Origin: Acidimicrobiales bacterium
GTDB taxonomy: Bacteria > Actinomycetota > Acidimicrobiia > Acidimicrobiales > Salinilacustritrichaceae
Length of the DNA stretch: 64,000 nt
Reading direction: 5' to 3'
Assembly (NCBI GenBank): GCA_035529695.1
Contig: DATKWD010000108.1
Span: forward strand, 27,508-91,507
In this document: piece after piece, positions 6,677 through 59,332 of the stretch
Layout of the letters: every line of letters starts with the position of its first letter
Numbering within the stretch: position 1 is the stretch's first letter
Position numbers and translations under genes: made by a program
The notes under the pieces: model-generated
Database searches by the model: none
What the model saw: only the letters and a program-made list of their open reading frames with translations
Told to the model about the DNA's origin: nothing

Positions 6677-7948
6677 CTAGTTCTCGGGCTCGGTGTCGGG
6701 CCCGAAGATCAGCCTCGGACCTCGGTCCCACGTGAAGTAGTTCCAGGCCCAGTTGAGCAGGACCGACAACCGGTTTCGTCGACCGACGAGGAAGACCAGG
6801 TGCAGCCCGAGCCACGCAAACCAGGCGGGCGTCCCCCACAACCGGATCCCGAAGGGCAGCTCGGCGACCGCAGCGCGCCGCCCGATGGTGGCCATCGTGC
6901 CCTTGTCGGTGTAGCGGAACGGCTCGGTCGGCTCGCCACGCTGCACCCGGTGGATCTGTGCCGCCACATGGGCTCCGGTCTGCATCGCCACTGGGGCGAG
7001 CTGCGGCAGCGCGTGGTCGTCGTTCACGATGTGGGCGATGTCGCCGATCGCCCAGACCCCATCCGCGCCAGGAACCGACAGATCCGAATCGACGATGATG
7101 CGCCCCGATGGTCCTTGTTCGAAACCGAGCGACTCGACCAACGGATTGGCCTTCACGCCAGCCGCCCACACTGTCGTGTGCGTGCTGATGCGCTCGCCGG
7201 TGTCGAGCTCGATGTGGTCAGCCGCGACGCTCCGCACGTTCGCTCCATAGAGGATGTCGACACCACGAGACACGAGCGTGTCGTGAGCGTGCTGTTGCGA
7301 GGGCGACGAGAACGGGGCCAGCAACTGCTGTTCGCGCTCGATGATCCGCACCGACACGCGCTCGAGATCCAGGTCGGGGAAGTCCTTGCTCAGGACGGCG
7401 TCGATCAGTTCGGCCAGCGCTCCCGCGGTCTCGACACCGGTCGGGCCGCCGCCGATGACCGTGAACGACAGCACGCCGTCTTCCACGGCCGCCGGATCGA
7501 CCTGGGCTGCCTCGAAGCACCCGAGGATGTGGTTTCGCAGCCTCACCGCGTCAGCCAGGTTGTAGAGGGGCAGCGCGTGGTCGGGCGCACCCTCGATGCC
7601 GAAGAAGTTGGTGGCTGCGCCCGCAGCCACCACCAGGTGGTCGTAGCCGAGCAGCTGCTGGCCCTCGACGACCACGTGTCGTGTCTCGGTGTCGATCCCG
7701 CTGACACGCCCGTTGCGGAACCGAACGTGATCGACGCCGTGGAACAGCCCGCGCACCGCATGGGCGACGTCGGCGGCGTTCAGGCCTGCGGTCGCCACCT
7801 GGTAGAGAAGCGGCTGGAACGTGTGGAAGTTGTTCCGGTCGACGATGGTCACCGTGACGTCGTCGCCGAGCGCCCGGGCGACGGCCAGCCCGCCGAACCC
7901 GGCGCCGATGACGACGACATGTGGTCTGGGTTGGTCGACGGTCGACAT
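6677..7948 (-). CDS. ndh: Type II NADH dehydrogenase (NDH-2) / FAD-dependent pyridine nucleotide-disulfide oxidoreductase
   Basis: Two Rossmann motifs (VVVIGAGFGGL, TVIGGGPTGVE), VWAIGDIA, and a C-terminal amphipathic/membrane tail. ATG 7948 (MSTVDQPRPH). Confidence 0.85.
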   Translation of the reverse strand: MSTVDQPRPHVVVIGAGFGGLAVARALGDDVTVTIVDRNNFHTFQPLLYQVATAGLNAADVAHAVRGLFHGVDHVRFRNGRVSGIDTETRHVVVEGQQLLGYDHLVVAAGAATNFFGIEGAPDHALPLYNLADAVRLRNHILGCFEAAQVDPAAVEDGVLSFTVIGGGPTGVETAGALAELIDAVLSKDFPDLDLERVSVRIIEREQQLLAPFSSPSQQHAHDTLVSRGVDILYGANVRSVAADHIELDTGERISTHTTVWAAGVKANPLVESLGFEQGPSGRIIVDSDLSVPGADGVWAIGDIAHIVNDDHALPQLAPVAMQTGAHVAAQIHRVQRGEPTEPFRYTDKGTMATIGRRAAVAELPFGIRLWGTPAWFAWLGLHLVFLVGRRNRLSVLLNWAWNYFTWDRGPRLIFGPDTEPEN

Positions 7949-8070
7949 CCCACCTCCGCTTGTGAACCCTTTCACGAATGACCCTACGCCTCGGATCGTC
8001 GAACGCGGGGAACCATCCGCAGAGGTCCTTGAGTACGCTCGGCGTCGTGACCGATGACCATCGCACCGAC

Positions 8071-8304
8071 ATGGAACAGCTCCGCGCCGAGATCGATCGA
8101 GCGAAGGCGAGCGACGCAGACACGACCGATCTCGAGGCACTCGTCGATCGGCTCGAGCGGCACCTCGACGACGACGACGAGCACACCGAGCCCGGAATCC
8201 GCGACCGGCTCGAGGATGCGGTGCAGACCTACGAGGTCGAGCACCCCGAGGTGACCTCGATCTTCGCCCGCATCGTCGACACGCTGAGCGCCGCGGGCCT
8301 CTGA
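8071..8304 (+). CDS. Small acidic helical protein (DUF4404-like)
   Basis: MEQLRAEIDRAKASD...HPEVTSIFARIVDTLSAAGL. G/C-rich third codon positions. An alternative GTG start lies at 8047. Confidence 0.45.
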   Translation: MEQLRAEIDRAKASDADTTDLEALVDRLERHLDDDDEHTEPGIRDRLEDAVQTYEVEHPEVTSIFARIVDTLSAAGL

Positions 8305-8314
8305 AGTCGACGGC

Positions 8315-9776: not shown

Positions 9777-12700
9777 TCAACGGGCACGCGACGGGCGCCA
9801 GGTCAGTCCCTTGTAGCCATCGGTGAAGCCTGCGGCGATGAGCACTTCGGCGTGCGGTGACTCGGCCACACGGGCTCGGTCGATCTTGCGGATCTCGAGG
9901 TTCCGGTACCGCCCCGACGTGGCGAGATCCTTGATGGCCTCGGCCCATCGGTGGTCGTGGCCGGTGCGGTCGAAGGTGACGAGAGCATGTCCACCACGCT
10001 CGACGTACACCGCAGGGACACCGTCGATGAGCACCACGTGTGCGCCGGCTTGGCGGGCGGGACGACCCGCCGACTCGGGCCACGGCAACGACGCGCCGTA
10101 GGGCTGAGCGGGGTCGGTGGCCGCCAGCAGCACCGGCACGTCGTCGGGGTCGGGGTCACGCATCGATCGAAGCCGATCGACCGCACCGGGCACGGCGAAC
10201 TGCGCCGCCCCACGACCTGCGACGAAGTAGCCGCGCCGCACCTCACCCCGTTCCTCGAGGGCCTTGAGCATCGGATAGACGCCGGCGAACCCCCCTTGGG
10301 CGCCCTCGCCCAGCGCCGCTTCACGGGTCAACACGCCGTAGCGTTCGAGAAGCTGCTGGGCCCGCGCGTGGGCGACCTCGGTCGGCGCCGGGTGAGGCTG
10401 GAGCAGCGGCGCCACCGCGGACCACCGGCCCGAGCCCGCCGGCGGGCCGAGGCGCGACAAACGACCCGGACGCGGGCGGCCACGTCCCCGGTTCGCCGCC
10501 GACCGCCGGGGCCGACCGGCGAGATACGAACGGAGCGGCGCCAGCGAGTCGTTGGTGACGTGCCCCGCCCACACAAGATCCCACAACGCGGCAAGCACGG
10601 CCTCGTCGTCGTAGTCGTGGCCGGCGCCGTGCACTGCCCCGAGCACGTCGGTCCAGAACGACGCACCCCGGGCGGTGAGGTGATCGAGGATCGCCGACTG
10701 CACATCTCCCTCGGGGACCTCGTCCGGGCTCGGGACGAGCAGCGGGGCCTGATCTCGAAAGACGAGCCGCACGCGGCCGTCGCGGGCGCCGAGCGACCCG
10801 GCACCGATCCAGACGATCTCGCCGGTCGAACAGAGTCGGTCGAGGTCGGCGGGGCGGTACTCGGCGAGCCGAGCAGGAAGCAGATCGGCCTCGAGCACCG
10901 AGGCGACCAGTGGGGCACCCGACAGCTGGCCGAGCGAGTCGATCAGGGCATCGAAGGACCGCCGTTGGCTCCCGACGTGGTGCCACGCAGGGAGGAACCG
11001 CCCCAGGGCATCGCCTTCGACCGGTTCGACCTCGCGACGCAGCGCCGCCAACGAGCGACGCCGCAGCATCTTCAGGACGTCTTCGTCGCACCACTCGCGA
11101 GCGGCACCTCCGGGCCGGAACTCGCCTCGCACAACCCGCGACTGTGCTTCGAGCGCCTCGAGTGCCGGCCGGACGCGATCGAGCTGGACGCCGTATCGGC
11201 GCGCCAGGTCGTCGGTCACGAACGGCCCGTGGGTCTTGGCGTAGCGCGCGGCCAACTCGACCCACGGGGCGTCCTGGACCTCGGTGAACGCGATCGGCAA
11301 TCCCATCGGCGCCGCGACCCCGAGCGCATCACGCAACCGGCCGGCGTCCTCGGCGGCAGCGATCCGTTCTTCGCCCGCGATGTTGACCCGGTAGGCGCGG
11401 CGCACGGCTTCGAGCTCGGCGACCAGTGCGTCTGCGTCGGTGCCGACGGTGCGGCCGTCGATCTCGAGCAGGCTCAGCGGGCCGAGCCGGCGCAGCAGAT
11501 CGTGCACCTCGTCGGCATCGCGGGCCCGACGACCTTCGACGAGGCATTGGAGTTCGAGTTCGAGGTCGGCCAGCGCTTCGGGATCGATGAGCTCGCGGAG
11601 CTCCTCTGCGCCCAGCAGCTCGCGCAACAGGTCGCGGTCGAGCGACAACGCAGCAGCACGCCGCTCGGCCAGCGGTGCATCGCCTTCGTACATGTACACC
11701 GCGATCCAGCCGAACATGAGCGACTGGGCGAAGGGCGAGGCTCGGTCGGTCTCGACGGTGACCATCCGGACCCGACGGCTCCGCAGGTCGGTGAGGACCT
11801 GCTTCAGGGCCGGCACGTCGAACACGTCGTTCATGCACTCGCGGGTCGCTTCGAGCAGCATCGGGAACGTCGGATACTTCGCAGCGACACCGAGGAGGTC
11901 GGCAGCCTTCTGGCGCTGCTGCCACAACGGTGTGCGGCGGTCCGGCCGGCGTCGCGGCAGCAACAGGGCGCGACCGGCACACTCTCGGAACCGGCTGGCG
12001 AACATCGCGGTCTGAGGCAACTGCCGGACGAGGAGTTCCTCGAGTTCGTCGGGATCGACCGTCAGCAGCTCGACGGGGATCTCGTCGATGGCTTCGGGCA
12101 ACCGCAACACGATGCCGTCGTCGCTCCACATCAACTCGACCTCCATCCCCCACTCCTCGGCGAGCAGGAGCTGGAGCGCCATTCCCCACGGCGCATGGAC
12201 CTGGGCGCCGAACGGTGACAACACACAGATCCGCCAGTCACCGATCTCGTCGCGGAACCGTTCGACGACGATGGTCCGATCGTCGGGCAGCGCCCCGGTC
12301 GCCTCGGCCTGCTCGTCGAGATACGCCACGAGATTCGTCGCCGCTCGCGGATCGAGGCCGTGGTCTCGACGAAGGACTTCGACCGGATCGTCGACGGTCC
12401 GGATCTCGCGCACGAACGCGCCGATCGCCTGACCGAGCTCGAGCGGACGTCCCGGCCCGTCTCCGTGCCAGAAGGGCATCTTCCCCGGCTGTCCGGGCGC
12501 CGGGGTGACGACGACGCGCTCGAAGGTGATGTCCTCGATGCGCCACGTCGACGCACCGAGCAGAAAGGTCTCGCCGGGACGGCTCTCGTAGACCATCTCC
12601 TCGTCGAGCTCGCCGACTCTCGTGCCATCGGGGAGGAACACGCCGAACAGGCCGCGGTCCGGAATCGTTCCGGCGTTGGTGACTGCCAGCCTCTGAGCGC

Positions 12701-14405
12701 CCGCTCGCCCGCGGACCACCCCCTCGATGCGGTCCCAGACGATGCGGGGCCTCAGCTCACCGAACTCCTCGGACGGATAGCGACCCGCCAGCAGATCGAG
12801 GACCGAGTGCAGGACGTCGTCGGACAGCTCGGCGAAGTTCGCCGAGCCACGGATCACGGCCTTCACGTCGTCGAGCGACCATTCGTCGAGCGCGCACATG
12901 GCCACGATCTGCTGCGACAGAACGTCCAGGGGGTTGCGCACGAAGTGGGTGTGCTCGATCTCACCGTCGACCATGCGCTTCACCACCACCGCCGCCTCGA
13001 GAAGGTCGTGGCGGTGCTTCGGGAACAACTTCCCGGTGCTCGGTTGGCCGACCTGGTGACCGGCACGGCCGATCCGCTGGAGGCCCCGGCTGACCGCACC
13101 GGGTGACTCCACCTGGATCACGAGGTCGACTGCACCCATGTCGATGCCGAGCTCGAGGCTGCTCGTGGCGACCAGGCCCTTGAGGCGCCCGGCCTTGAGG
13201 TCGTCCTCGATCTGCAGCCGGCGCTCGCGGCTCAGCGAGCCGTGATGAGCCCGGACCAACTCGACCCCTTCGGCGAACTCGTCCGACAGTGGCGCCCGTC
13301 CCTCGGCCTCGGCCGCGCGGTTGATGCCCTCGACGTGCAGTTCGTTGAGGCGGATCGCCAAGCGCTCTGCGAGACGCCGTGCGTTCACGAAGATCAGCGT
13401 CGAGTGGTGTGCCTTCACCAGTTCGAGGAGCTCGGGGTGCATCGCCGGCCAGATGCTTCGTCGCACCGGACCGGCAGCGGCGGGCCCGGACGTCGGCTCG
13501 TCGACGATGGTGCCCAACTCGGCCATGTCGTCCACCGGGACGACGACCTCGATGTCGAGGACCTTGCGGATGCCCGCATCGACGATCCTCACCGGCCGAG
13601 GCGAGCCGTCGGCGCGACGGCCGACCAGGAAGTCGGCGATCTCCTCCAACGGTCGTTGCGTCGCAGACAACCCGATTCTCTGCAATGTGCTGTTCCGTTC
13701 CCCGGCCACGGAGGCCGCGCTGTCCCGTTCCCCGGCCACGGAGGCCGCAACCGGCCGCTCACTCGCTGGCGCTCCCTCGCTCGCACCATCAAGTCGCTCC
13801 GGCGATGGAGTGTCCCCATCGCTCCCTCTTTCCACTTGCATGGCCTCCAAGCGTTCGAGGCTCAGTGAGAGGTGGGCGCCTCTCTTGGTGGCGGCGAGCG
13901 CGTGGATCTCGTCGATGATCACCGCATCGACCCGGGTCAGGGTCTCGCGGGCCTTGCTGGTGAGCATCAGGTAGAGCGATTCCGGTGTCGTGATGAGGAT
14001 GTCGGGTGGCGACCTGACCAGGCGACGCCGCTCGTCGGGAGGGGTGTCACCCGTGCGGATGCCGACGGTCGGCTCGACGACCTCGACCCCGAGGCGATCG
14101 GCCGCGACCCTGATACCGGTCAGCGGGGCCCGCAGGTTCTTCTCGACGTCGACGGCGAGGGCGCGCAGCGGCGAGATGTAGAGAATTCGAGTGTGGCGAT
14201 CGTCCGGATCAGTCGGCTCGGACACCAACTGGTCGATCCCCCACAGGAATGCCGAGAGCGTCTTGCCCGACCCGGTGGGGGCGAGGATCAGAGCGTTGTG
14301 GCCGTCGGCGATGGCCGGCCACCCTTGTTCCTGCGGCGGTGTCGCAGCAGCGAACGAGGCTTCGAACCACGCCCGGACGGGTTCGGAGAACCGATCGAGC
14401 GCCAT
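9777..14405 (-). CDS. lhr: Lhr-family large ATP-dependent DEAH helicase (1542 aa)
   Basis: Motif I APTGSGKT, motif II DEIH, motif III SAT, HHGSLSRE and QRIGRAGH, followed by the long Lhr C-terminal extension. Confidence 0.9.
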   Translation of the reverse strand: MALDRFSEPVRAWFEASFAAATPPQEQGWPAIADGHNALILAPTGSGKTLSAFLWGIDQLVSEPTDPDDRHTRILYISPLRALAVDVEKNLRAPLTGIRVAADRLGVEVVEPTVGIRTGDTPPDERRRLVRSPPDILITTPESLYLMLTSKARETLTRVDAVIIDEIHALAATKRGAHLSLSLERLEAMQVERGSDGDTPSPERLDGASEGAPASERPVAASVAGERDSAASVAGERNSTLQRIGLSATQRPLEEIADFLVGRRADGSPRPVRIVDAGIRKVLDIEVVVPVDDMAELGTIVDEPTSGPAAAGPVRRSIWPAMHPELLELVKAHHSTLIFVNARRLAERLAIRLNELHVEGINRAAEAEGRAPLSDEFAEGVELVRAHHGSLSRERRLQIEDDLKAGRLKGLVATSSLELGIDMGAVDLVIQVESPGAVSRGLQRIGRAGHQVGQPSTGKLFPKHRHDLLEAAVVVKRMVDGEIEHTHFVRNPLDVLSQQIVAMCALDEWSLDDVKAVIRGSANFAELSDDVLHSVLDLLAGRYPSEEFGELRPRIVWDRIEGVVRGRAGAQRLAVTNAGTIPDRGLFGVFLPDGTRVGELDEEMVYESRPGETFLLGASTWRIEDITFERVVVTPAPGQPGKMPFWHGDGPGRPLELGQAIGAFVREIRTVDDPVEVLRRDHGLDPRAATNLVAYLDEQAEATGALPDDRTIVVERFRDEIGDWRICVLSPFGAQVHAPWGMALQLLLAEEWGMEVELMWSDDGIVLRLPEAIDEIPVELLTVDPDELEELLVRQLPQTAMFASRFRECAGRALLLPRRRPDRRTPLWQQRQKAADLLGVAAKYPTFPMLLEATRECMNDVFDVPALKQVLTDLRSRRVRMVTVETDRASPFAQSLMFGWIAVYMYEGDAPLAERRAAALSLDRDLLRELLGAEELRELIDPEALADLELELQCLVEGRRARDADEVHDLLRRLGPLSLLEIDGRTVGTDADALVAELEAVRRAYRVNIAGEERIAAAEDAGRLRDALGVAAPMGLPIAFTEVQDAPWVELAARYAKTHGPFVTDDLARRYGVQLDRVRPALEALEAQSRVVRGEFRPGGAAREWCDEDVLKMLRRRSLAALRREVEPVEGDALGRFLPAWHHVGSQRRSFDALIDSLGQLSGAPLVASVLEADLLPARLAEYRPADLDRLCSTGEIVWIGAGSLGARDGRVRLVFRDQAPLLVPSPDEVPEGDVQSAILDHLTARGASFWTDVLGAVHGAGHDYDDEAVLAALWDLVWAGHVTNDSLAPLRSYLAGRPRRSAANRGRGRPRPGRLSRLGPPAGSGRWSAVAPLLQPHPAPTEVAHARAQQLLERYGVLTREAALGEGAQGGFAGVYPMLKALEERGEVRRGYFVAGRGAAQFAVPGAVDRLRSMRDPDPDDVPVLLAATDPAQPYGASLPWPESAGRPARQAGAHVVLIDGVPAVYVERGGHALVTFDRTGHDHRWAEAIKDLATSGRYRNLEIRKIDRARVAESPHAEVLIAAGFTDGYKGLTWRPSRAR
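13690..13749. repeat. In-frame 2 x 30-nt tandem duplication inside lhr
   Basis: gctgttccgttccccggccacggaggccgc is followed directly by gctgtcccgttccccggccacggaggccgc (1 mismatch). On the minus strand this encodes AASVAGERDS/AASVAGERNS. Confidence 0.9.
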
Positions 14406-14486
14406 CGACTCAACGTATCGACCCGGCGTGACACGCCACCCGCGAACCCGTCACGGCCACGATCCGCGCCGATAGCCTCGGCCGCC

Positions 14487-35783: not shown

Positions 35784-36020
35784 TCAGCCGGTCAGGCGGT
35801 CAGGCCGAACCCGAGCGCAAGTGGTGGACCTCGGCGGCCGATGCGGTACCGTGACGGCGTCACCGGCCGCCTGCGGGTCGCCGGTCGCCCTCGCCGGAGA
35901 GTGACCTTCGGCCGGAGGTGTTCCACCTCGCTGCTGCCAGGCCTGGGGGAACACCGATCGAAATCGGCGGCACACGTCGTCGATCCGAACGGAAAGCGAA
36001 AGCGCATCACCACCACCGCC

Positions 36021-39000
36021 ATGCCCGCGCCGAGTACCCAGGGCGAGTTCGAGCTCCTCGTCCAGGACCACCTCGACCAGATCGCCGACGACGCCGTCGA
36101 ATCAGTCCTGCGCGCCGACGAACAGCGTTGGCGGCGGACCCTGCAGCGCATCTTCGACGACGTCGATGACACCCTCTTCGACCTCCGCCGCGACTACCGC
36201 GGGCCCAACCGGGCCCAGGTGCTCGCCGACTTCGAGGACCAGCGGGCCCGGGTCGCCATCGTCCTCGGCTCGCTCGGCGACGACATCGACCTCGACGAGC
36301 TCGACGCGGTCGACGACGACCTCGTCACCCCGCCGGGCGAACGCGCCGCGACGCCGACCGAAACCGCTCCTCGCCCGAAGGACGGGGTCGCCCAGCTCCA
36401 GCTGTCGTGGACCCCCGGTCAGCTCATCGCCTGGTCGTCCGGTCCGAACGCTCGTCACGAGCGAACCGATGCGGTGCTGGCCCGGCTCGAGAAGATCGGC
36501 GGCGGTCAGCTCGGCTGGCAGGAGCGGCGCGCGGTCAAGGTCCCCGACGGAAGCCGCGCCGACGCCACCGAGACCGACATCATCAACGGCCTCGGCTGGC
36601 TCACCGCGCTGCGCACCGTGACCGACGACACCACCGGAGCGAGCGTCAGTTGGATGGGTGCGGTCGCCGCCCTCGCCGTGCAGCTCGCCACCCAGGGCCG
36701 CATGGTGCCGACCGTGAAGAAGCTCAAGCGTCGCCTCACCGACGAGCAGCGCGAGAAGCAGCTCGCGTCCTACGTCGTGCGGTGGGTGCCGGCGCTCATC
36801 GAGGAAGCCGAACTCACGGCCCTGGCCGAGAGCCTTCCGCCGGCGGTCACCGTGCTCGAGAACCGCCGCGACGCGAAGGCGTTCACGATCGCCGTGCTCT
36901 CCGACCTCATCGACGCCGTGTGCTGCACCGCCGCGGCACGCCTCGAGACGCCGGCACCCCCCGAGGACCCGCGGACCAAGACCGATGTGTCCGAGGTCAT
37001 GCTGGCGAATCTCGACGGCAAGATCTTCGACGCGCCGAGCCGGTACGGCTCGGAGATCGCGAGCCGGATCGATCGTTGGAGCCGCCCGATCACCGGGCCC
37101 CTCAGCGTGAAGCTCACCGTGTTGCTCGACCCGCCCGGCGACGCCAACGACTGGTACCTCGCCGTCAAGGCCCCCGGCCCCGACGGTGACCTCGAACCGA
37201 TCGAGTCGGCCATGGTCAACTCGGGATCGGGCCGCGGCAAGGACCTCCAGGACCACCTCACCCGCCTCGAACGGCTCTTCCCGCCGTTGCTGCGCCCCGG
37301 CGCCCGGCGACGCGGCGAGGTGATCCTCAGCCAGGACGAGGCATGGCAACTCATGAGCGGCACCGGCGATGCGCTGATGGCCGCCGGCTACGACGTCAGG
37401 ATCCCGCTGCTCGGGAAGGGAAAGCCGGCCCCGTCGCTGAAGCTGACCGCCGACGACGCCGACGAGTCGGTGGTCGGTGCGCAGCAACTCGCCAACGTCA
37501 GCTGGTCGGCCGTGTTCGACGACGTCGAACTCACGGCCGAGGACATCCGGGCGCTCGCGGCCGAGGCTCGGCCACTCGTCCAGTCACGCGGCCGCTGGGT
37601 CGAGCTCGACAAGGCCGATCTGGCTGCAGCCGCCCGTGCCCTCGCCGACCGCGCCGACACCTCGCGACTCACCGGCGCCGACATGCTGCGCCACGCCCTC
37701 GGCCTCGAGGGCTCGCCGCTCTCGGGTGGCATCTCGCTCGGCGGCGAGGGCTGGGCCGCCGATCTGCTCCGCAGTGCGGGTGACATCCCTGACGACCTCC
37801 CCACCAGCCCCGACGGGTTCGAGGGCGAGCTGCGCCACTACCAGGCCGAGGCCCTGGCATGGCTCCAGTTCCTCGACCGCTCGGGCCTCGGTGGCTGCCT
37901 CGCGCTCGACATGGGCCTCGGCAAGACCCCGACCATGCTCGCCGACATCCTCTCCTCGACCAGCGACGGGCCGTCGCTGGTGATCGCACCGCCGGCCGTC
38001 GTCGGGAACTGGGCGGTCGAGGCCCGCCGCTTCACCCCTGGTCTCGACGTCGTCGTACACCACGGACCGAACCGCGTCGATGCGGCGAGGTTCGACGCCA
38101 TGGCGAACCAGGCCGATCTGGTCATCACCACCTACGGGACGGCCGTCCGCGATGTCGACGCGCTCGAGAAGGTCGCCTGGGGCAAGGTCGTGCTCGACGA
38201 GGCCCAGGCCATCAAGAACCCGGCCAGCGACACCGCCCAACAATTACGGCGGATCCCGGCCCGCACTCGCCTCGCGCTGACCGGAACCCCGATCGAGAAC
38301 GGCCTCGGCGACCTGTGGGCGATCCTCGACTTCGCCAATCCGGGCCTCGTCGGACCGCGGGCGTCGTTCATCGCGAGTCTCTCCGAGGCCGGCACCGGCA
38401 AGGACGCCGCCGAGCGGGCCCTCCGTGCGCTCAACGGCATCCTCGTGTTCCGCCGCACCAAACTCGAGCCGGCCATCGCCGCCGAGCTGCCCGATCGCAT
38501 CGACGAGCTCGACCACTGTGCGATGACCGCCGAACAGATCGGCCTCTACCAGGCCGTGCTCGACGACCTGGTTCGCGAAACCGCCGACGACGGCACGCCG
38601 CAACGCAAGGGCGCCGTCCTGGCCGCGATCACCGCGCTCAAGCAGATCTGCAACCATCCGGTGAATTTCCAACCCGACGACGACGGTCCGATCGAGGGCC
38701 GGTCGGGCAAGCTGGCCCGTCTCGACGAGATCCTCGAGACGGTGTTCGCGGCGGGCGAACGGGTCCTGGTGTTCACCCACTTCGCCTCGTGGGGCGAGCG
38801 GCTCGCCGTGCACCTGAGCGAACGCTTCGACATGCACGTTCCCTGCTACCACGGCGGCCTCGGCCGCGGGGCCCGCGACAAACTCGTCAGTACCTTCCAG
38901 GAGGGCACCGGGGCGGGAGCCATGGTCCTGTCGCTGAAGGCAGGCGGCACCGGACTCAACCTCACCGCAGCCAACCACGTGGTGCTCTACGACCGCTGGT

Positions 39001-39293
39001 GGAACCCTGCGGTCGAGGACCAGGCCCGCGACCGCGTGTGGAGGATCGGCCAGAAGAACAAGGTCATCTGCCATCGCCTGGTGTGTCCCGGCACCGTCGA
39101 CGAACGGGTCGAAGAGGTCGTGGCGGGCAAGCGACGGATCGCCGACATGGTCCTCCCCAAGTCGAGCTCGGTCGGCGACCTCGACAGCCAGCAGCTCCAG
39201 GTCGCGCTCGGCATCGACCCCGACCAGCTGCTCACCGACGACGAGACCGATCTCGACACCACCGCCCTCGCCTCGACCGGAGCCCCGGCATGA
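36021..39293 (+). CDS. SNF2-family (SF2) helicase/ATPase with a long N-terminal helicase-associated region
   Basis: Motif I LALDMGLGKT, II LDEAQAIKN, III LTGTPIEN and VI QARDRVWRIGQ. ATG 36021 is chosen; the longest ORF starts at 35841. Confidence 0.9.
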   Translation: MPAPSTQGEFELLVQDHLDQIADDAVESVLRADEQRWRRTLQRIFDDVDDTLFDLRRDYRGPNRAQVLADFEDQRARVAIVLGSLGDDIDLDELDAVDDDLVTPPGERAATPTETAPRPKDGVAQLQLSWTPGQLIAWSSGPNARHERTDAVLARLEKIGGGQLGWQERRAVKVPDGSRADATETDIINGLGWLTALRTVTDDTTGASVSWMGAVAALAVQLATQGRMVPTVKKLKRRLTDEQREKQLASYVVRWVPALIEEAELTALAESLPPAVTVLENRRDAKAFTIAVLSDLIDAVCCTAAARLETPAPPEDPRTKTDVSEVMLANLDGKIFDAPSRYGSEIASRIDRWSRPITGPLSVKLTVLLDPPGDANDWYLAVKAPGPDGDLEPIESAMVNSGSGRGKDLQDHLTRLERLFPPLLRPGARRRGEVILSQDEAWQLMSGTGDALMAAGYDVRIPLLGKGKPAPSLKLTADDADESVVGAQQLANVSWSAVFDDVELTAEDIRALAAEARPLVQSRGRWVELDKADLAAAARALADRADTSRLTGADMLRHALGLEGSPLSGGISLGGEGWAADLLRSAGDIPDDLPTSPDGFEGELRHYQAEALAWLQFLDRSGLGGCLALDMGLGKTPTMLADILSSTSDGPSLVIAPPAVVGNWAVEARRFTPGLDVVVHHGPNRVDAARFDAMANQADLVITTYGTAVRDVDALEKVAWGKVVLDEAQAIKNPASDTAQQLRRIPARTRLALTGTPIENGLGDLWAILDFANPGLVGPRASFIASLSEAGTGKDAAERALRALNGILVFRRTKLEPAIAAELPDRIDELDHCAMTAEQIGLYQAVLDDLVRETADDGTPQRKGAVLAAITALKQICNHPVNFQPDDDGPIEGRSGKLARLDEILETVFAAGERVLVFTHFASWGERLAVHLSERFDMHVPCYHGGLGRGARDKLVSTFQEGTGAGAMVLSLKAGGTGLNLTAANHVVLYDRWWNPAVEDQARDRVWRIGQKNKVICHRLVCPGTVDERVEEVVAGKRRIADMVLPKSSSVGDLDSQQLQVALGIDPDQLLTDDETDLDTTALASTGAPA

Positions 39294-50402: not shown

Positions 50403-51095
50403 CTACTCCTCGGGATGCGGTCGCCACGGTGTGTCGCGTGGCTCGTCGTAGAGGACACCGACGTCCTCGCCATCGATGGCCGCGAAGACGTGCTCGCCCC
50501 ACTGCTCGATGCCGGCGATGGGTGACGGGAGGTCGTCGCGCGAGAACCAACCGACGTCGGTCGTCTCGAGCGGGTGTGCGTGCAGTTCTCCCCCGGTCGC
50601 CCGGCAGTGGAAGATCAGCGAGTAGAGCGGAATCCGGGTGAAACCGAGCCTGAGCCCGTCGAGCACCATCAGCATGCGGAGCGGGACGCAGTCGATCCCG
50701 GTCTCCTCGGCCACCTCCTTCACTGCGACCTCACTCGGCGAGTAGCCGATGTCAGCCCACCCGGTCGGGTAGAGCCAGATACCGCTGTCGGCCCGCTGGA
50801 TGAGGAGGATCTGTCCGGCATCGTTGCTGACGACCGCTCCGATGGCGACCTTGGGGGTCTGATAGCCCGCCACACCCTCGCCGACACCCTTGAGCCATTC
50901 GTCGATGAAGTGCTCGGCGTCGAATTCGTCGGAGACGTTGGCGGCGGCCCGCATGTCGCCGGCAACGGCGAGGACCTCCTCGAACCGCTCGCGCTCGTAC
51001 AGGTTGTCCGTGAACCCGAGGCCCGTTCGGGCGATACCGGACAGCGCCTCGCTCCACCGGATCAGGTCCTGGCGGGTCGGCGAAGGGTCGGTCAT
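50403..51095 (-). CDS. NUDIX hydrolase with N-terminal helical domain
   Basis: Nudix box GWADIGYSPSEVAVKEVAEETGI. Confidence 0.8.
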   Translation of the reverse strand: MTDPSPTRQDLIRWSEALSGIARTGLGFTDNLYERERFEEVLAVAGDMRAAANVSDEFDAEHFIDEWLKGVGEGVAGYQTPKVAIGAVVSNDAGQILLIQRADSGIWLYPTGWADIGYSPSEVAVKEVAEETGIDCVPLRMLMVLDGLRLGFTRIPLYSLIFHCRATGGELHAHPLETTDVGWFSRDDLPSPIAGIEQWGEHVFAAIDGEDVGVLYDEPRDTPWRPHPEE

Positions 51096-51102
51096 GAGCG
51101 GT

Positions 51103-52137
51103 TCACTCGGTGTAGGACGGCATTCCTGCCTCGATCAACTCGCCGACGAACTCGAAGAACTTCTCGCCGAAGGGGTCGTCGCCACTGAGAGGCAGCGTGC
51201 CCCGACGGATGGTCCAGTCGTACGGCGCCAGCTCGGCGGCCTGCGCGAAGTGATGCCGGGCGCCTTCTGCGTCGCCGAGCCGGTGCAGGTGTGCGCCGAT
51301 GCGGCGGTGGGCACGTGCTCGGCCCTGGTCCTCGGCGTCGGGTTGACTCCAGCGGGTCATGGCCTCGCGATCGATCGTGCCGTCGTGCACCCAGGCGCGC
51401 AGCGCTTCGTGGTGGACTTCACTGTCGATTCCCGAGAACTCCTTCCACATGTCCGACGCCGGAGCATTGGTGGGAGGACGCACCATCGACCCGCTCTCGT
51501 CGAACCACACGGTGGTGGGCACGTTGATGAGCCCGAAGGTCTCGGCGGCGTGCATGTTCGGGTCGATGAGCGTCGGAAGCGTCAGGTTCGCCTCGGTGAC
51601 CCAGGGCAGGGCGGCCTCAGCGGTGTCGTCGAGGCTCACCGTGATGGCCTGGAGGCCGAGCGGTGCGAGTTCGGTCATCAGTTGCTCCCACACGGAGAGC
51701 TCGTGGCGACACCCTCACCACGAAGCCCAGGCGATGAGCAACGTCTTCTTGCCGACGAAGTCAGCCAGGTCGACCTCGCCGCCGTGGACGCTCGGCAGAC
51801 GGACATCGGCAAGCGACGCGCCGTGTCCGCGGCTCATCGGATCTCCACCGATGGCAACGATGCCGCGGTCGGCGTCGACGACCACCGACTGCCCGAGCCG
51901 CTCGGCGAACGCACCGACATCGATCGACCCCTCGTTCACGATGTCGGTGCCCTTCACAGGAACACACGCTGCACCACGGCACAGCCCCTCGGGCTTGAGC
52001 TCCCACCCGGTCGCGGACGCGAAACTCTCCGCATCCACCTCGATCGGGCCATCAGCCTCGAGGCTCGGGATCTCGGCGAGGTCTCGTTCGATCAGCGTCG
52101 GCACCCGGGAAACCGTATCGGCTCGGTCGACACACAC
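51103..52137 (-). CDS. ResA/TlpA-like thioredoxin-fold protein with an in-frame TGA (51715-51717) at the redox-Cys position: probable selenoprotein (alternatively a pseudogene)
   Basis: ORFs 51715..52251 and 51103..51693 share one frame. Read-through gives ...FVGKKTLLIAWASW-U-GCRHELSVWEQLMTELAPLGLQAITVS... A GTG start at 52137 or 52104 is inferred. Confidence 0.6.
51684..51700 (-). promoter_or_regulatory. Candidate SECIS-like hairpin downstream of the in-frame UGA
   Basis: mRNA GCUCUC-CGUGU-GGGAGC forms a 6-bp stem (one G-U pair) with a 5-nt loop containing GU. It begins 14 nt after the UGA. Confidence 0.35.
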
Positions 52138-52146
52138 CTCAGTACG

Positions 52147-52728
52147 GTGGCACGGGTGACGAGCCGATGGAGCGAGGACCCGGCGGTGGCTCGGGGCGAC
52201 GCGTACGACGCCCGTTGGGCAGCAATGGCCGACACAGGTGAGTCGGTCCACGGCGAGGCCGACTTCGTTGCATCACTCGGACCGGCGTCAGTTCTCGACG
52301 CCGGATGCGGCACCGGTCGGGTCGCCATCGAGCTGGCGACGCGCGACATCGCCGTCGTCGGGGTCGACCTCGACGACGGCATGCTCGAGGCCGCCCGCCG
52401 AAACGCTCCGGATCTCATCTGGATCGAAGCCGACCTGGCGACGCTCGACCTCGATCGCCGATTCGACGTCGTCGCCATGGCCGGCAACGTCATGATCTTC
52501 GTCCGCCCCGGCACCGAGGCCCAGGTCGTCGCTTCACTGGCCGCCCACCTCGAGCCCGACGGCTCACTCGTCGCCGGGTTCCAACTGCGCCCGGGGGCAT
52601 ACGACCTCGCGACGTACGACGCCGATTGCGAACAAGCAGGCCTGAGGCTGTCGGAGCGCCATGCCACGTGGGATCGCGACGAGTACGAGGGCGGCGACTA
52701 CGCCGTCTCGGTCCACCGACGGCCCTGA
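52147..52728 (+). CDS. Class I SAM-dependent methyltransferase
   Basis: Motif I VLDAGCGTGRVAIEL, post-I VVGVDLD, then FDVVAMAGNVM. GTG 52147/52156. Upstream of that the ORF is antisense shadow sequence. Confidence 0.8.
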   Translation: MARVTSRWSEDPAVARGDAYDARWAAMADTGESVHGEADFVASLGPASVLDAGCGTGRVAIELATRDIAVVGVDLDDGMLEAARRNAPDLIWIEADLATLDLDRRFDVVAMAGNVMIFVRPGTEAQVVASLAAHLEPDGSLVAGFQLRPGAYDLATYDADCEQAGLRLSERHATWDRDEYEGGDYAVSVHRRP

Positions 52729-52742
52729 AGTCCTCGTGGGCG

Positions 52743-55372
<2,630 letters not shown>

Positions 55373-56626
55373 TCAGCCCCGGCCCATGGCGCCGAGATCG
55401 GCAAGGTTGTAGCCGGTTTCGGCGTGCTCGGTCCCGTCGAGCCCTGCCTGCTCGTCGTTCTCGTCGACCCGGAGGCCGATGGTGGCGTCGATCACCTTTG
55501 CGATGAGCGCGGTCACGATGAAGCTGAACGCGAGCACCACGACGATCGCCAGCACCTGCTCGACCAGCAGAGCGGTGCCGCCACCGAAGAACAGCCCGCT
55601 GTCGAAGGCTTCGGGGTCACCCTGGCCGAGGATCGACGTGTCGGCGAAGAACCCGATGAGGACCCCACCGATGATGCCGCCGACCATGTGGACGCCGACG
55701 ACGTCGAGGCTGTCGTCGTAGCCGAAGCGGTACTTCTGCTGAATGGCGAGGTAACAGACGATGCCGGCCACGGCACCGAACGCGATCCCCGCGAGCCCGC
55801 CGACGAAGGCGGCCGCGGGGGTGATGGCCACGAGGCCCGCCACGACACCCGAACATGCCCCGAGCAGCGTGAAGTGACCATCGCGGATCCGTTCGACGAT
55901 CAGCCAGGCGATCATGCCGGCCGACGCCGCGAGGAAGGTGTTCATCAGGGCCGTGGCCGTGAGCGCGGTGTTCCCGGCGGCCCCACCGCTGTTGAACCCG
56001 AACCACCCGAACCAGAGGATCCCGGTTCCGAGCAGGACCAGCGGGAGGTTGTGCGGCGGCATGGCTTCGCGTGGCCATCCGCGGCGCTTTCCGAGCACGA
56101 GCACCATGGCGAGCGCAGCGACACCTGCGTTGACGTGGATCGCCGTTCCGCCTGCGAAGTCGAGCGAGCCGCGGGCACCGAGCCATCCGACGAGCGAGCC
56201 GTCGCCGTTGTCGACGCCGTAGATCCAGAACACGACGGGCGTGTAGACCAGAAGGCTCCAGACCGGGACGAAGATCGCCCAGGCCGAGAACTTCATGCGG
56301 TCAGCAACCGCTCCGGAGATCAGCGCCGGGGTGATGACCGCAAAGGTCATCAGAAACGCCGTGAGCAACAACCCGCTGCCGTCGAGGCCCTTCAGGCCCG
56401 CGGCATCGAGGTTGCCGATGAAGCCGTTCCCGCTTCCGCCGCCCGAGAGCGAGGCGCCCACCGTCACCCACAGCAGGGGGATGATGCCCGCGCAGTAGAT
56501 GTTCATCAGCAACATGTTCAGCACGTTCTTCGAACGCACCATGCCCCCGTAGAACAGCGCGAGTCCCGGTGTCATGAACAAGACCAGGACAGTCGAAGTC
56601 AGAAGCCACGCATCGCCACCCTCCAC
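55373..56626 (-). CDS. amt: Ammonium transporter
   Basis: Amt signature DFAGGTAIH, the VVGVHMVGG twin-His region, and about 11 TM helices. It lies upstream of glnK-glnD. Confidence 0.95.
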   Translation of the reverse strand: MEGGDAWLLTSTVLVLFMTPGLALFYGGMVRSKNVLNMLLMNIYCAGIIPLLWVTVGASLSGGGSGNGFIGNLDAAGLKGLDGSGLLLTAFLMTFAVITPALISGAVADRMKFSAWAIFVPVWSLLVYTPVVFWIYGVDNGDGSLVGWLGARGSLDFAGGTAIHVNAGVAALAMVLVLGKRRGWPREAMPPHNLPLVLLGTGILWFGWFGFNSGGAAGNTALTATALMNTFLAASAGMIAWLIVERIRDGHFTLLGACSGVVAGLVAITPAAAFVGGLAGIAFGAVAGIVCYLAIQQKYRFGYDDSLDVVGVHMVGGIIGGVLIGFFADTSILGQGDPEAFDSGLFFGGGTALLVEQVLAIVVVLAFSFIVTALIAKVIDATIGLRVDENDEQAGLDGTEHAETGYNLADLGAMGRG

Positions 56627-56776
56627 GGAGGTCCTCCTCAGTCAGCTCGTGCGTGCCGATCACGCCCGCGCAGACCGTAGGCGTTCTTCGGATCGGAGGC
56701 TACTTCTGTGCCCGCCGACCAGACACGAGGAGGCCTGACGGCGGGCCCCGGCGTGCCTGCGAAACCGTGATGACGG

Positions 56777-57694
56777 TCAGACAGAAACCGATTCGCGCTC
56801 CTGTGCCCGGTCGCGTCGTGCGCTCATGCGCTCGCCGGCCTTCTTGACCCGGCCGATGTACTTGATCGTGCGTTCACGCGCGACCTCGGCCTCGGCCGAG
56901 AGGCCTTCGACGCCCGCCAGGTTCCAGTGTTCGAGCACGATGGGTTCGAGGATCTGATCGTGGTGGATCGTGAAGTCGTAGATCCCGGCCTGTGCGATCG
57001 CCTTGGAGTGCCGATTGAACTCGGGGATCCCGGTGCCTGGCATGGCGAATCCGCACACCTGGCGTTCCATGGCCAGCACGGCCTCGGAGGGGTCGAGCTC
57101 GAGCGCCGCGCTGGCGGCGTCGCGGTAGAAGACGTGGTGGAGGTTCTCGTCGCCTGCCACCCGAGCCATGATCTCGTAGCCGGTGCGGTCTTCGAGGAGA
57201 CGCCCCGTGTTGCGGTGGGAGATGCGGGTGGCGAGTTCCTGGAGGGTGACATAGACCAGGCCGTCCATCGGCGAGCCGGGTCGTGGCACTTCCCCGGTGC
57301 TCATCTGGCTCATCCTGCCGCGTTCGAGATCGATCAGATCGACTGCCCGGGTGACTGACAGGTAGTCGCGGATGACGATCGAGTGCCGGCCCTCCTCGGC
57401 GGTCCAGCGTCGAGCCCACTCGCCCCACGCCCCGTCGTTGCTGAACATGTGGAAGATCGTCTCGAAGTAGTACGGAAGGTTGTCCTCGGTGAGCAGGTCG
57501 ACGATCAGTGCGCTTCGAACCGCGTCGGGCATCGGCGCCTCGTCGGGGTCCCACGGCTCGCCCACTTCGAAGTCGCGGCCACGGCTCCACGGCACCAGCT
57601 CGTGGGGAAACCACTCCTTGGCGTTGGTGAGATGCCGGGCGAGAAGTGTCTCAACGGTCGGCTCGAGCTCGGCGACGAGGGTGCTTGCGTCCAT
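56777..57694 (-). CDS. Acyl-ACP desaturase (soluble di-iron, DesA-like)
   Basis: Di-iron motifs WTAEEGRHS and AGDENLHH. Confidence 0.85.
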   Translation of the reverse strand: MDASTLVAELEPTVETLLARHLTNAKEWFPHELVPWSRGRDFEVGEPWDPDEAPMPDAVRSALIVDLLTEDNLPYYFETIFHMFSNDGAWGEWARRWTAEEGRHSIVIRDYLSVTRAVDLIDLERGRMSQMSTGEVPRPGSPMDGLVYVTLQELATRISHRNTGRLLEDRTGYEIMARVAGDENLHHVFYRDAASAALELDPSEAVLAMERQVCGFAMPGTGIPEFNRHSKAIAQAGIYDFTIHHDQILEPIVLEHWNLAGVEGLSAEAEVARERTIKYIGRVKKAGERMSARRDRAQERESVSV

Positions 57695-57753
57695 GGGGCC
57701 TCAGCCTACCGACCGGTAGGTAGACGTGCACATCACCGGTTCACATCGGGGCG

Positions 57754-59091
57754 TCAATCACCCCGGAGCAACCGTCGGGCCACCATCTGGACCGGGTCCC
57801 AGACCCCCGAGAACGGCGGCGCATAGGAGAGGTCGAGGTCGATGACCTGTTGGGTGTCCAGGCCTGCGTGCAGCGCCATCGCGACGGTGTCGATGCGCTT
57901 GCCGGCACCTCGACCGCCGATGATCTGCGCGCCCAGGACGCGACCGCTGCCCCGCTCGGCCAGCATCTTGATGGTCATCGGCTCGGCCTCGGGCATGTAG
58001 TGGGCGATCGTGCTGGTGTCGAGCGTCGCCACGTCGTACTCGAACCCGGCCTCGACCGCCTCGTGCTCGGTGAGGCCGGTGCGGCTGATCTCGAGCGCAC
58101 AGATCTTGGTGATGGCCGTGCCCACCACGCCCGGGAACGTCGCATAGCCGCCGCCGATGTTGACCCCCGCGACACGGCCCTGCTTGTTCGCAACCGTGCC
58201 GAGAGCAATGTGCACCGGCTCCTGGGTGAGCAGGTGAAACGAACTCGCGCAGTCTCCGGCCGCCCACACGCCGTCGACGGACGTCCGCTGTCGCCGGTCG
58301 ACGAGGATCGACCCGCGCGGCCCCAGGTCGAGGCCGGCATCAGCGGCGAGGTCGGCATTGGGCGTCACCCCCATCCCGAGCACCACCAGATCCGCGTGGT
58401 GCTCGCCTTCGGTGGTGTGGACCACCCCGTCCTCGAAACCCGTGACCGGGAGGTCGGTCCGCACGTCGACGCCGAATCCGCGGATCGCCGATGCCACCTT
58501 CGCGGCGATGTCGGAATCGAGGGTCCGCATGACCTGCGAGGTCGCTTCGATGAGCGTGACCTCCGCACCCCACCGGCAGAACGCCTCGGCCATCTCGAGG
58601 CCGATGTAGCCGCCACCCACCACCGTCACATGCCGGCAGTCGGTCATGTGCGCGCGGGCCACGATCGCCTCGGCGTCGTCGAGCGTCTGGACCCCCATCA
58701 CCTTCGGAAGATCGATGCCACCGATGTCGGGGCGCATCGGCCGCGCACCCGTGGCGATGTGCAACTGATCGAAGGAGAGGTTGATGGTGCGATCCCGAGC
58801 GCGATCGTGCACCTCCACCTTGCCGGCCTGGAGGTCGATCGATCGCACCTCGTGCTGCATCCGCACGTCGATGCGCTGGTGGTCACGGAACTCCTGCGGC
58901 GTGCGAGCCACCAGGTCGTCGAGGTCCGACACGTCACCGCCCACGAAGTACGGAATCCCACATGCGGCGTAACTCGTCCAGTTGCCCTTCTCGAGCGCAA
59001 CGATGTCGAGATCGGGGTTGCGGCGCCTCGCCTGCGAAGCCGCCGCCATGCCGCCTGCGTCCCCGCCGATCACGACCAGTCGTTCCGCCAT
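57754..59091 (-). CDS. CoA-disulfide reductase / NADH-oxidase family flavoprotein
   Basis: VVIGGDAGGMAAA, the redox Cys context SYAACGIPY, a second Rossmann VTVVGGGYIGLE, and VWAAGDC. ATG 59091. Confidence 0.8.
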   Translation of the reverse strand: MAERLVVIGGDAGGMAAASQARRRNPDLDIVALEKGNWTSYAACGIPYFVGGDVSDLDDLVARTPQEFRDHQRIDVRMQHEVRSIDLQAGKVEVHDRARDRTINLSFDQLHIATGARPMRPDIGGIDLPKVMGVQTLDDAEAIVARAHMTDCRHVTVVGGGYIGLEMAEAFCRWGAEVTLIEATSQVMRTLDSDIAAKVASAIRGFGVDVRTDLPVTGFEDGVVHTTEGEHHADLVVLGMGVTPNADLAADAGLDLGPRGSILVDRRQRTSVDGVWAAGDCASSFHLLTQEPVHIALGTVANKQGRVAGVNIGGGYATFPGVVGTAITKICALEISRTGLTEHEAVEAGFEYDVATLDTSTIAHYMPEAEPMTIKMLAERGSGRVLGAQIIGGRGAGKRIDTVAMALHAGLDTQQVIDLDLSYAPPFSGVWDPVQMVARRLLRGD

Positions 59092-59149
59092 GGCGCCGGA
59101 CACTAGGTGATGGTCTCGATCCGGTGTTCCCGTCGTGCGAAGATTGGCC

Positions 59150-59332
59150 ATGGCCGTGCGCCGCGACTGTCGCCACTACTCGACGCGCACCACCCCTGAC
59201 GGCGTGGTGCAACGATGCCGGGTCGCCGCCAACGAAGACATGCCGTTCGCGTGCCCCGATGACTGCCTGTTCTTCGAAGACCGTCCGATCACCGACGCCG
59301 GCTGGCAGCGATTCGAGCCCGAGGACGGCTGA
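59150..59332 (+). CDS. Small four-cysteine protein (60 aa)
   Basis: MAVRRDCRHYSTRTTPDGVVQRCRVAANEDMPFACPDDCLFFEDRP has four Cys in a CX15CX11CX3C layout. Third codon positions are G/C-rich. Confidence 0.5.
   Translation: MAVRRDCRHYSTRTTPDGVVQRCRVAANEDMPFACPDDCLFFEDRPITDAGWQRFEPEDG

Follow-up and report, generated by a model that had tools for sequence, protein, structure and literature searches.

A probable selenocysteine-containing ResA/TlpA-like redoxin in Acidimicrobiia, called by gene finders as two hypothetical open reading frames

We have analysed a stretch of 64,000 nucleotides (nt) from an Acidimicrobiales bacterium (GenBank assembly GCA_035529695.1, contig DATKWD010000108.1, positions 27,508 to 91,507 of the forward strand), called the window below, which carries on its minus strand a redoxin gene with a single in-frame TGA at positions 51715-51717. 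From sequence comparison we consider it highly probable that this gene encodes a selenoprotein and that the UGA is decoded as selenocysteine (Sec). The TGA is conserved among relatives and aligns with a cysteine in the others, purifying selection acts on both sides of it, a covarying hairpin specific to the TGA-containing genes follows it, and the protein around it has a thioredoxin-type fold. We hold our confidence at this level because the machinery for Sec incorporation was not seen.

The minus-strand open reading frames (ORFs) 51715..52251 and 51103..51693 lie in one shared frame, with only the TGA between them. On the minus strand, the codons around it read AAG AAG ACG TTG CTC ATC GCC TGG GCT TCG TGG TGA GGG TGT CGC CAC GAG CTC TCC GTG TGG GAG CAA. 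Translation across it gives ...KKTLLIAWASW*GCRHELSVWEQLMTELAPLGL..., ending at the terminal TGA at 51103-51105, and the read-through frame contains no frameshifts or extra stops. Positions 51709-51729 on the same strand thus encode W-A-S-W-[TGA]-G-C, which agrees with a W-A-x-x-U-G-C signature when U is the TGA. An earlier note on this DNA, made from its letters alone, had described two in-frame ORFs parted by one TGA at the redox-Cys position, and the ORFs and their translation bear this out. The same note had put the protein at about 344 amino acids (aa), and this length has to be revised. Gene callers in three assemblies used the start equivalent to GTG 52104, calling the upstream part as a 129-aa ORF; homologues begin at the same point in the alignment; and the region 52105-52251 overlaps a divergent S-adenosylmethionine (SAM) methyltransferase gene (52225-52728, plus strand). 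Considering these three observations, the true start is most likely GTG 52104 rather than 52251, and the protein has 333 aa with the TGA at residue 130. The gene and its parts are as follows.

51103..52104, minus strand: complete gene of the predicted selenoprotein, 333 codons plus TGA terminator, start codon GTG at 52102-52104, Sec as residue 130
51715..51717, minus strand: predicted Sec codon UGA (U130), in the column where a thioredoxin-fold active site has its N-terminal nucleophilic Cys
51709..51711, minus strand: codon of Cys132, presumably the resolving Cys in U-G-C, invariant in all homologues
51820..52104, minus strand: N-terminal alpha/beta domain of about 95 aa, of no known family, with the invariant motif GW.LKPEGLC-x4-C
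51964-51981, minus strand: codons of the Cx4C pair Cys42 and Cys47, both invariant columns
51430..51819, minus strand: central ResA/TlpA-like redoxin (thioredoxin-fold) domain, from Pfam, a PDB profile search and AlphaFold/Foldseek
51106..51429, minus strand: helical tail at the C-terminus, weakly TPR-like; its conserved motifs are HHxxLRxW, ARAxRR, APxDWTIRRG and DPFG
51684..51700, minus strand: candidate bacterial selenocysteine insertion sequence (SECIS) hairpin inside the coding sequence, with a 6-bp stem (GCUCUC/GGGAGC) and a 5-nt apical loop (CGUGU) at 51690-51694

Among the roughly 5.8 billion proteins searched, about 115 full-length relatives of 330-360 aa with 41-50% identity were found, which align across the whole length of the protein. 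These full-length relatives all read W-A/S-S-W-C-G-C-R, and the TGA of the window falls exactly on the first Cys; in an alignment of 69 full-length homologues (40-48% identity), Cys-Gly-Cys is invariant on this column. In the five closest relatives (66-99% identity), gene callers likewise made two genes out of one, with the break at the same point, and among the proteins these relatives are present only as C-terminal fragments of 191-196 aa. The redoxin gene itself is split by gene callers into ORFs of 129 and 191 aa, and in every assembly inspected the two ORFs are unnamed or labelled hypothetical, in line with the expectation of the earlier note that gene callers would split it.

At the nucleotide level, an identical TGA is found in two further near-identical assemblies, a 1.28 Mb ENA contig and a JGI metagenome contig. 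It is also kept in more divergent loci. The species-level relative 'uncultured Acidimicrobiaceae bacterium MFD09964.bin.1.301' (78% identity; handled here as locus L004 and, identically, L007) and the loci L005, L006 and L008 retain it while the flanking codons vary synonymously. In L004/L007 and two short contigs (about 75% identity), these synonymous neighbours are GCT/GCC, GGG/GGA, TGT/TGC and CGC/CGA. A TGA form is also present on the complete chromosome OY970233.1.

We then surveyed one genome per GTDB species and used the best 80 of 513 confirmed relatives; the surveyed genomes are mostly labelled Acidimicrobiia. Among these 80 loci, the active-site column holds TGA in 42 and TGC or TGT in 38, so that homologues carry either the stop codon or Cys at the same column, the two states that the earlier note had proposed to look for. 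Loci with a W-initial motif are divided into 35 with TGA and 33 with TGC/TGT, and the 12 loci with an F- or Y-initial motif into 7 with TGA and 5 with TGC. Hereafter, loci with TGA in this column are called Sec forms and those with TGC or TGT Cys forms. Four TGA forms (L075, L077, L084, L085) come from metagenome-assembled genomes (MAGs) labelled Myxococcota, Candidatus Binatia and Halioglobus (Gammaproteobacteria); they suggest either horizontal spread of the gene or mis-binned or mislabelled contigs.

The two halves of the gene evolve under the same constraint. For the window and L007, the ratio of nonsynonymous to synonymous substitution rates (dN/dS) amounts to 0.22 in the 129 codons that precede the TGA and to 0.20 in the 203 codons that follow it; dS is 0.65-0.74. 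Since dN/dS is about 0.2 on either side of the TGA, both halves are translated and constrained.

The domain structure shows where the TGA lies in the protein. For the central part, Pfam gave AhpC-TSA (PF00578, 3.4e-15) and Redoxin (PF08534, 4.4e-11), and a profile search of the PDB gave ResA/TlpA-type proteins at E ~1e-21. In the profile alignment with PDB 3kcm, a thioredoxin-family protein, the TGA column corresponds to the first Cys of W-C-P-P-C, and it is therefore the position of the N-terminal nucleophilic Cys of a classical CxxC site. Cys132 corresponds to the second Cys of this CxxC, with a one-residue deletion between the two active-site residues. As a structure model we used, in place of the window protein, the Cys homologue P0003, which is 48% identical; its AlphaFold model has a predicted local distance difference test score (pLDDT) of 94.3 and a predicted template modelling score (pTM) of 0.91. 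Foldseek matched the central domain of P0003 to Bacillus subtilis ResA (1su9/1st9) at E ~1e-11, with a template modelling (TM) score of 0.83 normalised to the target.

On either side of the redoxin domain, the protein carries a further domain. The N-terminus folds as a globular alpha/beta domain in the models of both P0003 and the window's own 129-aa fragment, and its invariant columns in the alignment of homologues are W34, G40, L41, C42, G44 and C47. This domain has no Pfam match at E <= 0.1, and a PDB fold search with the model of the 129-aa fragment gave nothing significant (best E = 1.0, probability 0.09). The C-terminal region is helical in the AlphaFold model of P0003, with TPR_2 and TPR_12 matches under the Pfam cut-offs. 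Pfam, the PDB profile and the model thus agree with the layout given in the earlier note, namely an N-terminal extension of about 95 aa, a redoxin domain and a helical tail. No hydrophobic segment that could serve as a signal peptide or membrane anchor is present (the top Kyte-Doolittle mean over 19 residues is 0.81), and the protein is therefore probably cytoplasmic, as judged from its sequence, unlike ResA and TlpA.

The hairpin GCUCUC-CGUGU-GGGAGC described in the earlier note is present at 51684-51700. It starts 14 nt past the UGA, encodes part of E-L-S-V-W-E-Q, and proved to be both specific to the Sec forms and covarying. Its minimum free energy (MFE) is -8.1 kcal/mol. The published bacterial SECIS (bSECIS) model has a loop of 3-9 nt, a stem of 4-16 bp, a G in the first two loop positions, a spacing of 16-37 nt and an MFE <= -7.5 kcal/mol. 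The hairpin of the window lies within these limits, with a 5-nt loop, a 6-bp stem, G then U at loop positions 2-3 and 20 nt from the UGA to the loop. The SECIS check proposed in the earlier note is in its favour by this model, as are the other proposed checks that were run.

For a comparison of the forms, we extracted 48 nt, beginning at the UGA column, from each distinct sequence with the W-type motif, which gave 34 Sec and 32 Cys forms; the hairpin occupies nt 18-34 in this numbering. Stem pairs 2-6 (nt 19-23 with nt 29-33) are canonical in 34 of the 34 Sec forms as against 3 of the 32 Cys forms, and the mean MFE of nt 14-38 is -11.3 kcal/mol in Sec forms against -6.4 kcal/mol in Cys forms. 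The loops of the Sec forms are limited to GGUCU, CGUGU and CGGGU, position 2 always being G and position 5 always U, whereas eleven different loop sequences are found among the Cys forms. Most members of the family have the GGUCU loop.

In alignment A4, 93.6% of the cells are paired, and both partners vary in two of the pairs. For pair 4 we counted G-C (25), C-G (5) and U-A (4), and for pair 1 C-G (13), G-C (5), U-A (3) and unpaired (13). The covariation score is 0.244 compared with 0.071 in shuffles, none of the 500 shuffles reaches the observed value, and sliding the 3' partner by 1-3 columns lowers the pairing to 29-55%. The partners in pair 4 are the wobble base of a Leu codon (CUC/CUG/CUU) and the initial base of the codon that follows Trp (GAG/CAG/AAG). 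Here, a synonymous Leu site covaries with a Glu/Gln/Lys replacement in the residue two codons on, a covariation that would be hard to explain otherwise than by RNA structure.

Against the selenoprotein assignment, several results have to be set. The hairpin of the window is marginal when taken alone (z = -1.28; 25 of 200 shuffles fold equally well) and the 71-nt segment after the UGA is uninformative (z = +0.70), so that the significance of the hairpin comes from the comparison across genomes only. Rfam, applied to the entire window at its gathering threshold, gave no SECIS match; a 2026 preprint describes bacterial SECIS elements as poorly covered in Rfam. The protein scores 235.6 bits (E = 9.6e-70) with its best NCBIfam match, NF041054, under the curated cut-off of 300 bits. 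As for the Sec machinery, no tRNA-Sec was found in the 64-kb window, where ARAGORN gave 0 tRNAs of any kind, and SelA, SelB and SelD were not found by NCBIfam among the 20 largest ORFs of the window. Also, about 600 kb of related loci contained no match to E. coli SelA, SelB or SelD by tblastn and no tRNA-Sec by ARAGORN.

The alternative that survives best, although we consider it unlikely, is that the UGA is used without Sec. It would then be read through or recoded, for example with Trp or Cys inserted by a near-cognate tRNA under the influence of the hairpin, or it would act as a normal stop that yields a functional 129-aa N-terminal protein with occasional read-through. Downstream stem-loops in general can stimulate read-through. 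That no Sec machinery was seen in the window and the fetched loci fits this explanation, as does the N-terminal domain, which folds independently and carries an invariant Cys pair of its own. However, the stop lies exactly on the catalytic Cys column, where TGA is interchanged with TGC/TGT only, and a chain terminated at this point would have no more of the thioredoxin fold than the first strand. Moreover, the 203 downstream codons are as constrained as the upstream ones, and the loop is limited to N-G-(U/G)-N-U with the invariant G that the bSECIS model demands.

A pseudogene, in which a nonsense change from TGC or TGT to TGA killed a Cys-type redoxin that is now decaying, is very improbable. 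A single base change does part these codons, the gene is called as two ORFs, and no Sec machinery was seen in the window, all of which such an explanation would accommodate. On the other hand, the TGA is kept in 42 of the 80 species-level genomes, a dN/dS of about 0.2 persists on both sides at a dS of about 0.7, the frame has acquired neither frameshifts nor further stops, and the downstream hairpin coevolves with the state of the TGA. Decay at unrelated positions, which the earlier note had named as a sign that would speak for this explanation, was not seen in the homologues examined. The pseudogene explanation is effectively refuted by this conservation.

A sequencing or assembly error hiding a true TGC or TGT at 51715-51717 is barely conceivable, even for a contig from a metagenome assembly, against the same codon in the near-identical ENA and JGI contigs, in four divergent orthologue sequences whose flanking synonymous sites differ, and in dozens of MAGs from unrelated projects. 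Equally far-fetched is a genome-wide reassignment of TGA (genetic codes 4 or 25), for which the in-frame TGA itself is the only point: TGA terminates 26 of the 27 confidently placed genes of the window, this gene included, so that UGA is not reassigned genome-wide, and when the window was scanned for further in-frame TGAs flanked on either side by coding signal, only gene junctions and antisense frames came up.

Returning to the selenoprotein, a Sec-decoding host would agree with what has been reported for the class. In the supplement of Peng et al. 2016, the organisms with the Sec trait include Ilumatobacter coccineus (15 selenoproteins), I. nonamiensis (10) and Ca. Microthrix parvicella (7) but not Acidimicrobium ferrooxidans. 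According to a 2026 preprint, each of the 84 complete Actinomarina genomes has selA, selC and selD together with a divergent selB. The earlier note had called Sec usage uncommon in Actinomycetota; in view of Ilumatobacter, Ca. Microthrix and Actinomarina, this rarity was overstated as far as Acidimicrobiia are concerned. Separately, a pyridine-nucleotide-disulfide oxidoreductase in the window (6680-8314, minus strand) has as its best NCBIfam match TIGR03169, 'Nterm_to_SelD'. With 114 bits where the cut-off is 310, this match is too weak to make it a selenium-related gene.

Based on these results, we propose the following mechanism. The one gene would yield a soluble 333-aa protein of three domains. 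During its translation, the hairpin at 51684-51700 within the coding sequence would recruit SelB carrying Sec-tRNA(Sec), and the UGA at 51715-51717 would be decoded as Sec. Sec130 would then take the place of the nucleophilic first Cys, in a U/C-G-C site that can be described as a CxxC shortened by one residue. The pair Sec130/Cys132 may cycle between the selenol/thiol state and a strained selenylsulfide, with the invariant N-terminal Cx4C pair as a candidate internal redox partner. The chemistry catalysed by the enzyme would be of the thiol-disulfide or the peroxide type.

The known system closest in signature is the NCBIfam model NF041054 ('WAxxUGC_long', ResA-like WAxxUGC motif-containing protein), an equivalog of 354 positions. 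The earlier note had mentioned a ResA-like family with a WAxxUGC signature; such a family exists in the form of this model, with the qualification that the score of the window protein is under its cut-off. The group of the window shares the W-A-x-x-U-G-C signature with NF041054 and differs from it in a divergent C-terminal region. For the window protein, the best-matching stretch covers profile positions 7-204 of 354, that is, the N-terminal and redoxin domains, and the tail forms a separate weak stretch. Ten relatives, eight Sec and two Cys forms, gave 213-247 bits, with best stretches only within positions 5-218. Because the scores are below the cut-off and the best stretches stop by position 218, we regard the group as a sister of NF041054 that is not named by that model. 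A full-text literature search for 'WAxxUGC' found nothing.

In the literature, Zhang & Gladyshev 2008 (PMC2398784) described a 'Prx-like (UGC-containing)' selenoprotein family assigned to pfam00578, with a UGC motif, 46 Sec sequences and 855 Cys homologues, which was commoner in non-marine samples. The supplement of Peng et al. 2016 has an entry 'Prx-like (distant, UGC-containing)' with counts of 15 and 16, and a 2026 review names a 'UGC-containing TlpA family'. The protein MDE0950781.1 is a published exemplar of the UGC-containing Prx-like/TlpA selenoproteins. The BSepDB paper holds no text of relevance to this family. On the one hand, our group resembles the Prx-like (UGC-containing)/TlpA family, which was published as a prediction from sequence only, in its redoxin fold (PF00578/cd02966), its Sec within U-G-C and its many Cys homologues, and motif and fold suggest that both may belong to the same orthologous group. 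On the other hand, the three-domain architecture and the covariation of the hairpin are not described in those papers. A UGC selenoprotein of this kind has thus been known since 2008, and the window gene is a further, unannotated member. We also entertain, tentatively and as the less probable view, that the group centred on Acidimicrobiia is a distinct cytoplasmic selenoenzyme family and not a variant of NF041054 or ResA, in which three fixed domains would be combined and the Cx4C pair would act as a built-in redox partner or substrate mimic for the strained U-G-C site.

Compared with ResA, TlpA and CcmG (DsbE), the central fold is the same, with about 25% identity between P0003 and ResA (1st9, 1su9), and the active site is in the same place, after a W at the start of helix 1. 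The differences lie in the U-G-C site, with one residue between the redox residues instead of the C-x-x-C of those proteins, in the extra N- and C-terminal domains, and in the lack of the signal peptide or membrane anchor expected of an extracytoplasmic protein. The ResA model NF002854 gave 49 bits against a cut-off of 170, and no cytochrome c maturation context was found in the window.

The hairpin resembles the SECIS element of the E. coli fdhF type and the bSECISearch consensus in being a stem-loop within the coding sequence just past the UGA, with a small apical loop that has an early G followed by U/G. The GGUCU loop is similar to GGUC, the loop of fdhF. In comparison with the fdhF-type element, the stem of the window is only 6 bp long and no conserved bulged U was identified in it; SelB binding is putative here.

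The relation between Sec and Cys forms can be followed in the family. In a neighbour-joining tree of 69 proteins, which carries no support values, Sec and Cys forms are interleaved, and the Sec forms make up at least five separate clades, one of which consists of the window, L007 and L008. This indicates, provisionally as to the number of switches, that the Sec and Cys versions replaced each other repeatedly. The SECIS hairpin may constrain the peptide after the active site. A D-L-P-(S/G)-W-(E/Q) peptide, which is encoded by the hairpin in Sec forms, is retained in the Cys forms L051, L055, L063, L068 and L086. The retained peptide, together with the stem in 3 of the 32 Cys forms, is compatible with 'fossil' SECIS remnants left by a recent replacement of Sec by Cys. 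As a side observation, seven species-representative loci with a Cys form (L019, L023, L027, L029, L034, L048 and L052) have a tRNA-Cys(GCA) gene at most about 3 kb away from the redoxin gene, and none was found beside the Sec forms in the fetched loci; this adjacency is probably shared synteny in one or two clades.

We consider that the main value of these results concerns annotation, in that gene callers turned the gene into a pair of hypothetical ORFs in the MAG assemblies inspected, and the whole group is missed by the cut-off of the curated NCBI model. Because 42 of the 80 species-representative genomes have the TGA form, the mis-call is likely to be common. Corrected calls would add a selenoprotein to many genomes of Acidimicrobiia and would mark their lineages as Sec users. 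Additionally, the family offers a clean natural data set on repeated Sec/Cys exchange at one catalytic position with a SECIS element embedded in the coding sequence. What is known of selenocysteine decoding as such is left unchanged by this gene.

With regard to its surroundings, the redoxin gene is placed between a NUDIX hydrolase gene on its downstream side and the methyltransferase gene, beyond which a nitrogen-regulation cluster (52743-56641) follows.

50403..51095, minus strand: NUDIX hydrolase gene, an ORF with Pfam NUDIX and Nudix_N in related loci
52743-55025, minus strand: glnD, nitrogen-regulation cluster
55022-55372, minus strand: glnB-sized ORF, nitrogen-regulation cluster
55376-56641, minus strand: amtB, nitrogen-regulation cluster

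The NUDIX gene begins 7 nt downstream of the redoxin gene, which agrees with the position directly upstream of a NUDIX hydrolase given in the earlier note, and the two genes are probably co-transcribed. The NUDIX gene is context only and is not part of the Sec element. A functional link to NUDIX as a family-wide feature was considered and rejected, the adjacency being found only in the clade of the window and in one Cys clade. The glnD-glnB-amtB cluster is located immediately upstream of the methyltransferase/redoxin pair, and the glnD-redoxin neighbourhood is retained in L007, L008, L016, L020 and L021.

Other features of the window stand apart from the redoxin gene. A flavoprotein similar to CoA-disulfide reductase (57757-59175, minus strand) matches TIGR03385 at 422 bits, below the cut-off of 579 bits, and is a Cys form with the motif S-Y-A-A-C-G-I-P-Y; a 2026 review lists Sec forms (UGxP) of this CoA-disulfide-reductase-like family. 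Three large genes of helicase type are also present.

9780-14450, minus strand: Lhr-family helicase, 1557 aa
18721-20862, minus strand: HelD/HelR-like RNA polymerase recycling ATPase
35784-39290, plus strand: SNF2-family helicase with DUF3670, 1169 aa

The sole Rfam match in the window is ASdes (RF01781) at 57327-57394 on the plus strand, with 50.1 bits and E = 8.7e-9. It is antisense to the ORF 56780-57700 (minus strand), an acyl-ACP-type fatty acid desaturase (FA_desaturase_2, 2.8e-66), and this arrangement is the same as that of the desA1 antisense RNA of M. tuberculosis; the match may simply reflect the conserved coding sequence of the desaturase.

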